From NCBI GenBank assembly GCA_951406725.2, contig OX597814.1, positions 9,176,001-9,240,000 on the forward strand: a DNA stretch of 64,000 nucleotides, written 5' to 3'. Under the pieces are notes generated by a model. The model worked only from the letters and a program-made list of their open reading frames with translations. It was not told the origin of the DNA and made no database searches. A program made the position numbers and the translations under genes. Positions 6,087 through 60,055 of this stretch are shown one piece after another; within the stretch, counting starts at the first letter, position 1, and the number at the start of each line of letters is the position of its first letter. The stretch comes from Octopus vulgaris. Taxonomy: Eukaryota.

Positions 6087-6141
6087 CTTTTGAATGAAAT
6101 CCTTCATTTTCCTGTTTATTTTGGAGATATTCATGAAATAG
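6087..6141 (-). CDS. Macrodomain module 1 exon [19 protein letters not shown]+G
   Basis: 55 nt, acceptor ttttcacag, donor gtaaac; paralog of the other D exons. Confidence 0.78.
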
Positions 6142-59700: not shown

Positions 59701-60055
59701 TTGCAGTTGATATTGTTGTTAAGAAAGGCTCTACAGAATGGCTGTAGTAAGTTTGAGGTTGTTAAAGTTAGCAAAAGATATACTCAAGATATCAGATGTG
59801 AAGGAAATAAAATGTTTGAGTTTGATTGAGAAAATGTTTTAATTACCTGTAATGATTCCTTATTTGGAAATGAAATAACAATTAAATAAAAATATGTCAC
59901 ATGAATCTTTTTACTCACAGATGCATTAGTAATTGAACCAATTGTTAGGTTTATTTCAATGCCAGCATTTTCTCTGGATGTCTCATTAGTCCTGGGTGTC
60001 ATAGAGGATGGTTCCTGTTGTGAGCCAGGAAGGGATGCGTTTGACGATGCGGTGT
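6087..60055 (-). CDS. Internal portion of a multi-macrodomain (PARP14/PARP9/PARP15-like) gene; 12 exons = 3 tandem 4-exon macrodomain modules, 647 codons in frame
   Basis: Hand-spliced join(60055..59919,59637..59410,58807..58580,44661..44607,39559..39423,39141..38914,38315..38091,25696..25642,20580..20444,20162..19935,19324..19097,6141..6087). All introns are GT-AG, phases are compatible (A 1->0, B 0->0, C 0->0, D 0->1) and there are no stops. Motifs DVIVNST..L.L..G.ISK.IL.AAGP.IQ.EC..., [22 protein letters not shown] resemble PARP14 macro2/3. No PARP catalytic domain is in the window. Confidence 0.85.
6222..7406 (+). mobile_element. RTE-clade LINE 3' part with tandem ~60-bp 3' UTR repeats and (GAT)n tail; specific to this module
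   Basis: [28 protein letters not shown].., RRLRWYGHV; absent from the paralogous site at ~25760. Confidence 0.88.
7440..8360 (+). mobile_element. Old Penelope-like fragment (possible decayed GIY-YIG end + pLTR with hammerhead); paralogs at ~25790..26735 and ~44755..45700
   Basis: [10 protein letters not shown] resembles [10 protein letters not shown] of the Penelope ORF at 24384; hammerhead downstream on the same strand; ~55-bp direct repeat at ~7965 and ~8285. Confidence 0.45.
8089..8162 (+). ncRNA. Type I hammerhead ribozyme-like motif (degenerate stems II/III)
   Basis: gctacagg..ctgtca CTGATGA ..13 nt.. GAAA atacgtg ATC tggcag..cctgtagc; stem I ctgtca/tggcag and outer gctacagg/cctgtagc pair. 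Confidence 0.6.
8385..8685 (+). mobile_element. Degenerate SINE fragment with RTE-like tail
   Basis: ggtgagggttggtgacaggaaaggcatc..gccatagaaaatc and (GAT/GGT)n tail. Confidence 0.5.
8797..10356. repeat. Compound simple repeat (CT/CCTA/TCTG/TCTA/TATG) containing a 32-bp minisatellite (~31 copies, ~9035..10022)
   Basis: Unit tctgtctagctatccatcaatccatcca(tata/cata/catg/gctg). Confidence 0.95.
10358..14782 (+). mobile_element. Tx1-like (L1 clade) LINE, 5' truncated in ORF1, decayed ORF2 (APE, RT, C-terminal zinc finger)
   Basis: [16 protein letters not shown] knuckle; [55 protein letters not shown]. Confidence 0.9.
14797..15034 (-). mobile_element. tRNA-derived SINE fragment (octopus OK-like)
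   Basis: ttacttgtttcagtcatt..gac..gcc.tgctggagca, as at 26850 and 61915. Confidence 0.6.
15035..17340 (-). mobile_element. RTE-clade LINE (RT region + 3' UTR + tail), minus strand
   Basis: [47 protein letters not shown]; (CAT)n at the left end. Confidence 0.92.
17355..19057 (+). mobile_element. RTE-clade LINE 3' half, plus strand
   Basis: [36 protein letters not shown]; (GAT)n tail 40 nt from exon C. Confidence 0.92.
19097..19324 (-). CDS. Macrodomain module 1 exon [77 protein letters not shown]
   Basis: Overlaps ORF 19088..19312; canonical FP..GxG..(G/K)YP loop. Confidence 0.92.
19935..20162 (-). CDS. Macrodomain module 1 exon [77 protein letters not shown]
   Basis: 228 nt, acceptor ttttcag, donor gtaagt. 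Confidence 0.92.
20444..20580 (-). CDS. Macrodomain module 1 exon A: (D)[45 protein letters not shown]
   Basis: Overlaps ORF 20309..20527; 137 nt, GT-AG. Confidence 0.85.
20857..20911. repeat. (AAT)n microsatellite at R4/Dong 5' junction
   Basis: Direct reading. Confidence 0.95.
20912..22372 (+). mobile_element. R4/Dong-type LINE, 5' truncated
   Basis: [50 protein letters not shown]; (AAT)n on both sides. Confidence 0.9.
22376..22555. repeat. (AAT)n microsatellite between two Dong elements
   Basis: Direct reading. Confidence 0.95.
22556..23662 (+). mobile_element. Second R4/Dong-type LINE 3' part
   Basis: [53 protein letters not shown]. Confidence 0.9.
23683..25575. mobile_element. Penelope-like element: GIY-YIG endonuclease 3' end + pLTR, with inverted duplication (arms ~23745..24533 / ~24789..25575)
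   Basis: ORF 24384..24746(-) [43 protein letters not shown]; right arm is the reverse complement of the left arm. Confidence 0.9.
23860..23904 (-). ncRNA. Minimal type I hammerhead ribozyme of Penelope pLTR (core variant CUGAUGC)
   Basis: ggacca CTGATGC g gtcac-aggagt-gtgac GAAA gaac TC tggcc; inverted-arm copy 25408..25452 has core decayed to CTTTTGC. Confidence 0.65.
25642..25696 (-). CDS. Macrodomain module 2 exon [19 protein letters not shown]+G
   Basis: Identical to 44607..44661; GT-AG. Confidence 0.8.
26460..26533 (+). ncRNA. Hammerhead-like motif, paralog of 8089..8162 (more degenerate)
   Basis: ctgtca CTGATGA aactgagcaaagc GAAA atacatg ATC tggcag. Confidence 0.5.
26836..27168 (-). 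mobile_element. tRNA-derived SINE (octopus OK-like), head truncated by Tx1
   Basis: (tcttttac)n tail, gactgcggccatgctggagcaccgcc, aaatccactcacaagg, gaagacacttgcccaag. Confidence 0.8.
27170..30770 (+). mobile_element. Tx1-like LINE with 5' UTR, ORF1 (CCHC) and internally deleted ORF2
   Basis: [39 protein letters not shown] (APE). Confidence 0.88.
30775..33638 (+). mobile_element. Second Tx1-like LINE (ORF1 remnant + decayed ORF2), ending in (TCTA)n
   Basis: [47 protein letters not shown]. Confidence 0.88.
34030..36335 (-). mobile_element. RTE LINE, duplicate of 15035..17340
   Basis: ORF 35733..35948 RT motifs. Confidence 0.9.
36346..38051 (+). mobile_element. RTE LINE, duplicate of 17355..19057
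   Basis: Near-identical sequence. Confidence 0.9.
38091..38315 (-). CDS. Macrodomain module 2 exon [76 protein letters not shown]
   Basis: Overlaps ORF 38082..38303; 225 nt, GT-AG. Confidence 0.9.
38914..39141 (-). CDS. Macrodomain module 2 exon [77 protein letters not shown]
   Basis: Within ORF 38881..39183; acceptor ttttcag, donor gtaagt. Confidence 0.92.
39423..39559 (-). CDS. Macrodomain module 2 exon A: (D)[45 protein letters not shown]
   Basis: Same splice sites as other A exons, 137 nt. Confidence 0.85.
39886..42632 (+). mobile_element. Two R4/Dong-type LINEs separated by (AAT)n, duplicate of 20912..23662
   Basis: ORFs 40520..40804 and 42077..42463 identical to copy 1. Confidence 0.9.
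42653..44540. mobile_element. Penelope-like inverted element, duplicate of 23683..25575 (hammerheads 42830..42874 minus and decayed 44373..44417 plus)
   Basis: ORF 43350..43712 GIY-YIG. Confidence 0.9.
44607..44661 (-). CDS. Macrodomain module 3 exon [19 protein letters not shown]+G
   Basis: Acceptor gatttttacag, donor gtaaac, 55 nt; supplies the C-terminal helix and joins the next exon A in phase 1 (G|AC = Asp). Confidence 0.8.
45426..45499 (+). ncRNA. Hammerhead-like motif, duplicate of 26460..26533
   Basis: Identical core. Confidence 0.5.
45798..46134 (-). mobile_element. tRNA-SINE (OK-like), duplicate of 26836..27168
   Basis: Identical sequence. Confidence 0.8.
46136..51548 (+). mobile_element. 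Tx1-like LINE, near full extent, decayed, interrupted by an LTR-like insert; followed by (TCTG)n(TCTA)n
   Basis: ORF1 CCHC, APE, RT ([14 protein letters not shown]), C-terminal MDNFQR.LAWQCY. Confidence 0.88.
49039..49494. mobile_element. Probable solo LTR (456 bp, TGTAG...CTACA) inserted in Tx1 RT, 4-bp TSD tgct/ttct
   Basis: Interrupts the [13 protein letters not shown] coding sequence; TG..CA termini with short inverted ends. Confidence 0.65.
51553..51720. repeat. (TCTG)n(TCTA)n(TCCA)n microsatellite
   Basis: Direct reading. Confidence 0.95.
51744..52020. mobile_element. 277-bp foldback MITE, ~120-bp TIRs, TGT...ACA ends, perfect 4-bp TSD AGGT
   Basis: 51744..51863 is the approximate reverse complement of 51901..52020; aggt at 51740-43 and 52021-24. 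Confidence 0.88.
52030..56720 (+). mobile_element. Tx1-like LINE with internally deleted ORF1 and the best-preserved ORF2 in the window (APE 53053..53814, RT 54208..55494); ends in (TCTG)n(TCTA)n
   Basis: [78 protein letters not shown]. Confidence 0.93.
56995..57220 (-). mobile_element. RTE 3' UTR-like tandem repeat fragment, opposite orientation to the adjacent RTE
   Basis: cacgctcgaatggtgc..tgccactggcacg is the reverse complement of the RTE 3' UTR unit. Confidence 0.5.
57226..58543 (+). mobile_element. RTE LINE 3' part, paralog of 17665..19057
   Basis: ORF 57417..57911 [33 protein letters not shown]. Confidence 0.92.
58580..58807 (-). CDS. Macrodomain module 3 exon [77 protein letters not shown]
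   Basis: Acceptor tttttattag, donor gttggt, 228 nt; SLAFP motif. Confidence 0.9.
59410..59637 (-). CDS. Macrodomain module 3 exon [77 protein letters not shown]
   Basis: Acceptor acttttgtag, donor gtaagt, 228 nt; macrodomain core motifs. Confidence 0.92.
59919..60055 (-). CDS. Macrodomain module 3 exon A (Ser/Pro linker + N-terminal strand): (D)[45 protein letters not shown]
   Basis: Acceptor tttatttccag, donor gtgagt, 137 nt. Confidence 0.85.

Follow-up and report, generated by a model that had tools for sequence, protein, structure and literature searches.

Three Tandem Macrodomain Cassettes in the Window

The stretch of Octopus vulgaris DNA analyzed here (64,000 nucleotides of contig OX597814.1, assembly GCA_951406725.2, positions 9,176,001 to 9,240,000; hereafter the window) contains no N anywhere in its sequence and carries on its minus strand a four-exon macrodomain cassette, repeated three times in the order A-B-C-D. 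Unit 1 consists of exons A1 (59919..60055), B1 (59410..59637), C1 (58580..58807), and D1 (44607..44661); unit 2 of A2 (39423..39559), B2 (38914..39141), C2 (38091..38315), and D2 (25642..25696); and unit 3 of A3 (20444..20580), B3 (19935..20162), C3 (19097..19324), and D3 (6087..6141), the last exon of the array. All 12 exons are flanked by AG and GT, and they measure 137 nt (A), 228 nt (B), 228 nt (C; 225 nt in unit 2), and 55 nt (D). Joined in order they give 1941 nt, or 647 codons without a single stop. The exon phases are 1-0 for A, 0-0 for B and C, and 0-1 for D, so the cassette begins and ends in phase 1. This reproduces the original prediction of three rounds of a cassette with GT-AG sites and compatible phases forming one 647-codon frame over this span.

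The units are spaced 18,965-20,496 bp apart. The A-B intron is 281 bp long in all three, the B-C intron 598-610 bp, the C-D intron 12.4-13.9 kb, and the D-A intron 5.05-5.06 kb. The cassette thus has the features of a symmetric repeat, namely equal intron phase at both ends, homologous internal introns, and a hybrid junction intron (described below). Pairwise protein identities among the units are 82.7, 84.1, and 89.3%; identity at this level (83-89%) excludes a chance origin. The frame survived about 70 random substitutions in 5% of 5,000 trials.

Exon A encodes a linker followed by the first macrodomain strands, B the N-terminal half of the domain with loop 1, C the C-terminal half with loop 2, and D the last helix (D1 and D2 are identical). 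The first ~28 residues of exon A are rich in Ser and Pro and are predicted to be disordered in the structure models of two homologs, which agrees with the predicted Ser/Pro linker between macrodomains. When the translated exons were compared with the Pfam Macro profile, the check proposed with the original prediction, all three B exons scored above the curated cut-off (E 2e-11, for B1, to 3e-12) and all three C exons were matched (one above the cut-off and two at E ~0.01), while none of the A exons was.

A tblastn search of the whole window with six full-length Octopus homologs found no PARP, WWE, RRM, or N-terminal exons, and its sole matches outside the cassettes were between the N-terminus of one model and reading frames of long interspersed nuclear elements (LINEs). 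As predicted, nothing of a second gene or a PARP domain lies between the units. Because the non-cassette parts of the six homologs do not map to the window, it represents a stretch from the middle of a gene.

The Gene Containing the Array

With exon C3 as the query, 41 homologous proteins were retained from 247 candidates, and 39 of them are named from Octopus (O. vulgaris, O. sinensis, and O. bimaculoides). The NCBI O. vulgaris PARP14-like model P0021 matches seven exons in the window (A1, B1, D1, A2, B3, C3, and D3) at 100% identity, including a D-to-A join. It places half of a macrodomain 1 before A1 and a PARP domain after D3, outside the window, and both Pfam Macro and PARP score above their cut-offs, the link to the PARP exons resting on the gene model. 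A sister model from O. vulgaris, P0019, has one unit that is 98-100% like unit 3 (98% in A3); D3 is followed by the C-terminal region in both models. We therefore assign the window to the middle part of an O. vulgaris-type PARP14-like gene, in line with the cephalopod origin and PARP14 affinity proposed from the DNA alone.

These models bear on whether the units could be independent, truncated copies of the gene, or pseudogenes, whose exons are never joined in one transcript. The family does hold many fragmentary models. Against this explanation, frames and splice sites are intact, no other gene parts lie between the units, D-to-A joins occur in both O. vulgaris and O. sinensis models, and the D-to-A intron combines sequence from two introns of this very gene, the terminal one and the upstream one. 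We consider it very improbable.

The catalytic residues HGT and GVYFA of the PARP domain align with those of human PARP14 in sequence. At the third position of the triad that we take to define mono-ADP-ribosyltransferases (His, Tyr, non-Glu), the octopus protein has Ile opposite human Leu, and the encoded protein is predicted to be a mono-ADP-ribosyltransferase. The segment before the PARP domain, where a folded domain is predicted, matches Pfam WWE below the cut-off (E 0.0054, 17.5 bits versus 21.1). RRM_PARP14 matches are present in three of the nine models scanned (P0008, P0010, and P0012), and absent from P0021. Macrodomain hydrolases are characterized by Asn and Gly around loop 1 and by a hydrophobic and an aromatic residue in loop 2 (PMC10221186); hydrolase motifs of this type are found in macrodomain 1, as NAAN...GG in P0021 and GIF in P0019, each model containing half of the domain. 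The WWE-like segment before the PARP domain is missing from a second group of Octopus paralogs (P0003, P0008-P0010, P0012, P0014, P0016, P0032, P0035, and P0036).

Searches of the open literature, subscription papers excluded, turned up no account of such an array. NCBI annotates these Octopus genes simply as PARP14-like. The main text of PMC10221186 does not contain the word octopus, and its supplement lists one O. sinensis accession. According to the available part of PMC11431876, a “PARP14-like isoform X2” was detected in the O. vulgaris skin mucus proteome. The array is apparently an undescribed architectural variant of a known immune enzyme family, made by a known process.

Domain Class and Predicted Ligand Binding

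A one-unit homolog that is 93-99% like unit 3 in exons A-C gave bit scores of 95.1 for human PARP14 macrodomain 2 and 40.5 for macrodomain 1. The AlphaFold model of a two-unit homolog has a mean predicted local distance difference test score (pLDDT) of 85, with the linker below 50, and its best single-domain match is 3q71 (PARP14 macrodomain 2; root-mean-square deviation 1.6 Å), with macrodomain 3 ranking 47 and 50. We also built a FastTree phylogeny of 155 macrodomains from nine Octopus models, the window units, 24 young-duplicate or close proteins, and 18 sampled three-domain proteins. In this tree, all 23 Octopus repeat domains, including the three in the window, form one clade (support 0.98) that is sister to Argonauta (0.99) and sits within the group of canonical second domains (0.84). 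Five Octopus macrodomain-1 domains form a separate group, and no macrodomain 3 type was found among the Octopus domains in the tree, which fall only in the macrodomain 1 and macrodomain 2 groups. Sequence and predicted structure together identify the repeated unit as the PARP14 macrodomain-2 (reader) type.

In loop 1 the units have GS or GA in place of GG and retain the Asn, and their loop 2 lacks an aromatic residue; by the criteria in PMC10221186 (section 3.1), they are predicted not to be hydrolases. Loop 2 closes over the diphosphate, according to the available text of PMC10802294. In unit 3 it reads GAGTL, resembling human GTGNL with the GxG form intact, and this unit is predicted to bind ADP-ribose. 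Units 1 and 2 both have GAEM, which is one residue shorter, has Glu in place of Gly, and departs from GxG; because of this shortening and replacement, they may bind ADP-ribose weakly or differently. The proposed ADP-ribose sensing is thus plausible for unit 3 and questionable for units 1 and 2. The GAEM-type loop is absent from the 22 proteins in which a single loop was detected and present in 11 of the 18 with several, and the last unit has a GxG loop in 17 of the 18 multi-unit models (isoforms and orthologs inflate these counts and are not independent). Structure models bear out the macrodomain fold and the disordered linker; they do not separate the two loop-2 types, with pLDDT above 90 in both.

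Origin and History of the Array

The D-to-A intron is a hybrid. Its D side is 70% identical over 1,089 bp to the intron after D3 (22650..23684 versus 4952-6011), past a 1.9 kb insert, and its last 272 bp are 98.5% identical to the end of the intron before A1 (20581..20852 versus 60056-60327). Such a hybrid is the footprint of a tandem duplication, and the 70% identity indicates that this first duplication is old. A much more recent event is recorded by two 15 kb blocks that are 98.2% identical over 14.9 kb, with borders in or beside repeats: one (33795..48860) contains D1, the D-to-A intron, A2-B2-C2, and intron flanks, and the other (14797..30281) contains D2, the D-to-A intron, A3-B3-C3, and intron flanks. 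They are separated by a unit-specific spacer with LINE pieces (30282..33794), which resembles no other part of the window by more than 83%. These comparisons indicate that the array grew in stages, by an old founding duplication followed by a recent 15 kb block duplication. The claim that the domains are young paralogs accordingly holds for their 83-89% identity, unlike the ancient three of vertebrates, and is qualified by the 70% identity of the founding-duplication intron.

Within the blocks, the introns differ at 10/5046 (D-A) and at 46/4288 and 60/3899 (long C-D flanks) positions, and the exons at 17/137 (A), 5/228 (B), 10/225 (C), and 0/55 (D). Unit-specific sites are clustered (55 label changes versus 76.8 when shuffled, p 5e-5), and 21 of the 32 sites specific to unit 2 fall within 181 bp (39327..39507, minus strand), a likely gene-conversion tract. 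This divergent patch covers the 3′ half of A2, whose protein sequence is identical to that of the O. sinensis paralog P0011 at 23/23 residues (next best 13/23). Similarly, B1 is 97% like the units of P0001 and C1 is 97% like P0010/P0014, in each case a closer match than the corresponding exons of the array itself. This patchwork divergence was likely caused by gene conversion involving both units and paralogs.

The near-identity of the blocks raises the alternative that the assembler joined two haplotypes of a single unit, now read as units 2 and 3, and that the true gene has two units. Consistent with this, the 15 kb blocks are 98.2% identical with 0.2% divergence across the 5 kb intron, P0021 goes from A2 straight to B3, and the 41 homologs most often have one or two units. 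Yet the window is free of gaps, the 3.5 kb spacer is non-allelic to either flank (≤83%), exon A differs by 12% and exon C by the loop-2 indel, and O. sinensis has five-unit models. Even if this explanation, which we regard as quite unlikely, were true, units 1 and 3 would still be a real intragenic duplication.

We found no support for the suggested continuation of the array outside the window. It probably ends inside the window, at A1 and D3, since P0021 has macrodomain 1 directly before A1 and the C-terminal region directly after D3, and since the intron before A1 matches the D-to-A intron over only 272 bp; no further A exon was found within 6 kb after D3.

Two other candidate events were rejected. 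A crossover between two LINE copies in the window as the source of the spacer is unsupported, the spacer being just 72-83% like those copies. A cassette swap between paralogs with catalytic domains 50% alike was dropped because the low identity reflects the missing WWE segment: between paralog groups, identity is 22% in the WWE region, while PARP (74%) and macrodomain 2 (75%) diverge alike.

The introns contain several repeats. Five decayed LINE copies on the plus strand (10357-14865, 27969-30283, 30841-33633, 47174-51612, and 52903-56780), with endonuclease, reverse transcriptase, and zinc-finger Pfam matches, are 67-83% alike and lie solely in C-to-D introns; several adjoin (TATC)n-type microsatellites, which target-site preference could explain. 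In both D-to-A introns the ~1.9 kb insert lies just past exon D (23744-25569 and 42714-44534); its inverted arms measure 800 bp and are 87% identical, and it is absent after D3. Fragments of a second non-LTR retroelement (plus strand; 4232-5751 and 21150-23493), with reverse transcriptase, zinc finger, and a nuclease-like C-terminus, sit at corresponding positions of the terminal intron and the D-to-A intron. A 1.5 kb (CTAT)n region (8859-10345) contains a 32 bp minisatellite with 31 copies at 97%.

Selection and Variable Sites

The ratios of nonsynonymous to synonymous substitution rates (dN/dS) among the units are 0.90, 0.91, and 0.69, none of which differs from 1, although three sequences give little power. 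Exon B reaches 1.45-1.67 against unit 1, which is not significant, and no dN/dS significantly above 1 was found among the three units. The exonic indels between units are of 3 nt. Between units 2 and 3 the exons differ more than the adjoining small introns (32/645 versus 24/879, p 0.027). When 54 distinct B segments and 49 distinct C segments were compared, loops 1 and 2 contained three of the four positions of the domain that vary most (hypergeometric 0.008, a post hoc test on non-independent sequences), a distribution that hints at diversified recognition.

These data have to be weighed against the possibility that the array is real but adaptively unimportant. The LINE-rich PARP14 cluster would recombine often, surplus cassettes would persist owing to their symmetric phases, and the additional domains would be decaying passengers while the last unit does the reading. 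Such an origin would fit the dN/dS near 1, the altered loop 2 in units 1 and 2 together with the prevalence of GxG in the last unit (17/18), and the block borders in or beside repeats. It accounts less well for three units without a stop or frameshift, for a GAEM-type loop kept in 14 of the 49 distinct C segments from two species, for exons that change faster than their flanking introns, and for the recurrence of the same duplication in other lineages. We consider it the most credible of the alternatives, though still unlikely.

Unit Number and Recurrence in Other Animals

As the original prediction anticipated, unit number varies across the family. The 41 homologs hold 0-5 units: seven have 4-5 (five of these are isoforms of one gene), 13 have two, 20 have one, and one has none. 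The O. sinensis models have up to five units that are 75-94% identical, a number that two haplotypes could not supply. In the annotation, isoforms omit one unit, in differing registers (A-to-B′, B-to-C′, and D-to-A′), and thereby encode chimeric macrodomains (P0002-P0006, P0011/P0028, P0014/P0026, and P0021); one unit is skipped in three registers among O. sinensis isoforms, and P0021 joins A2 to B3. These skips may be true splicing, as in a Dscam-like combinatorial array, or may come from mis-mapped reads.

A more elaborate possibility is that the array generates diversity among ADP-ribose readers: it would expand and contract, paralogs would swap loop segments, splicing would skip units to make chimeras in any register because all homologous introns share the same phase, and units with broken loops would serve as decoys or pathogen-binding modules before one true reader. 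This is speculative, and we consider it unlikely.

We further examined 143 relatives, taken from the best 150 of 7,166 matches in a library clustered at 50% with a two-unit query, which favors young duplicates. At least two macrodomains are present in 140 of the 143, with a median best within-protein identity of 33%. Seventeen relatives reach at least 55%, and 11 of the 140 reach at least 70%, eight of the latter in the macrodomain-2 group; this set includes proteins from Argonauta hians and Littorina saxatilis plus nine others. Young macrodomain duplication, judged by these identities, is a recurrent phenomenon and not octopus-specific, contrary to the earlier idea of a lineage-specific array. 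Young duplicates of other types also occur (macrodomain 1 in P0153, macrodomain 3 in P0060, and an outlying type in P0065).

Proposed Function of the Array

Our preferred reading, to which we give a probability of roughly 0.6, is an intragenic three-copy macrodomain-2 cassette array in a PARP14-like gene, likely a reader in innate defense. The analysis directly shows the exon set with its phases and open frame, the class of the domain, the hybrid nature of the intron, and the patchwork divergence; the joins to macrodomain 1 upstream and to the WWE-like segment and PARP domain downstream are inferred from the gene model. Unequal crossing-over likely produced the three tandem copies of a frame-preserving cassette, which gene conversion would then reshuffle. 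The gene would encode a mono-ADP-ribosyltransferase in which a single eraser macrodomain precedes the three reader-type, non-hydrolytic domains. By analogy with PARP14, the reader domains would direct the enzyme to targets that already carry ADP-ribose and so amplify the modification, and changes in unit number and pocket-rim sequence could alter avidity or target range, or allow escape from antagonists. The likely role of the array in innate defense is likewise assigned by analogy with PARP14 as described in the available parts of PMC13224862 and PMC4038475.

Several points weigh against this reading. The D-to-A splice and the copy number are predictions from the assembly and gene models; P0021 lacks C1 and B2-A3, and no public model has all three units intact. 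The long introns of units 2 and 3 differ by 0.2-1.5%, a range possible for alleles. A dN/dS near 1 fits relaxed as well as diversifying selection, and, according to the available part of PMC4038475, the sites under selection in the macrodomains of primates are distant from the ADP-ribose pocket, in contrast to the variable sites of the octopus units. The open literature yielded no functional or infection data for any octopus PARP14-like gene.

Comparison with Known Systems and Significance

Human PARP14 (ARTD8; macrodomains 1-3, WWE, and ART) is the best sequence and structure match for the unit, through its macrodomain 2, and also the best match for the P0019 catalytic domain; the octopus macrodomain 1 shares hydrolase-type motifs. 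The three human domains are ancient classes, whereas in Octopus a young cassette carries macrodomain 2 in one to five copies and no macrodomain 3 turned up. The three-macrodomain PARP14 architecture has been called ancestral (PMC10221186, section 3.1). Repeated births of macro-PARPs with two or three macrodomains are likewise known from PARP9, PARP15, and clustered PARP14 duplicates in lancelet, sponge, microbat, and fish, the clustered copies being described in the available parts of PMC4245714, PMC4038475, and PMC13224862, the first of which gives one to three macrodomains for PARP14-like duplicates. As far as these accounts go, those cases involve whole or partial gene duplications and domain losses, whereas Octopus has an intragenic amplification of a single macrodomain with exchange between units.

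Closer parallels are the tandem macrodomain-2-type pairs in Argonauta hians (P0042), Littorina saxatilis (P0043), and Haliotis rubra (P0135), which are 93, 73, and 57% identical. These form clades apart from the Octopus units (Argonauta is 58% identical to them) and are known as database models alone; the duplications would be either independent or homogenized. Tandem exon cassettes with variable copy number and gene conversion also occur in LPA kringle IV, NBPF/Olduvai, and sea-urchin Sp185/333, but those arrays use other domains, whereas the Octopus repeat is a reader domain within an intracellular enzyme.

The three-macrodomain layout of PARP14 has been treated as fixed, with turnover described at the whole-gene level. 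Here, an invertebrate lineage appears to have multiplied macrodomain 2 after or alongside the loss of macrodomain 3, a change that other molluscs apparently underwent as well. The physiological targets of the PARP14 reader domains are still open, according to the available part of PMC13224862. A natural set of readers with almost the same sequence, varying chiefly at the rim of the pocket, would make reader specificity and avidity directly testable. Molluscs, to our knowledge, are without vertebrate interferon, and the array points to a candidate antiviral system in animals that lack it.

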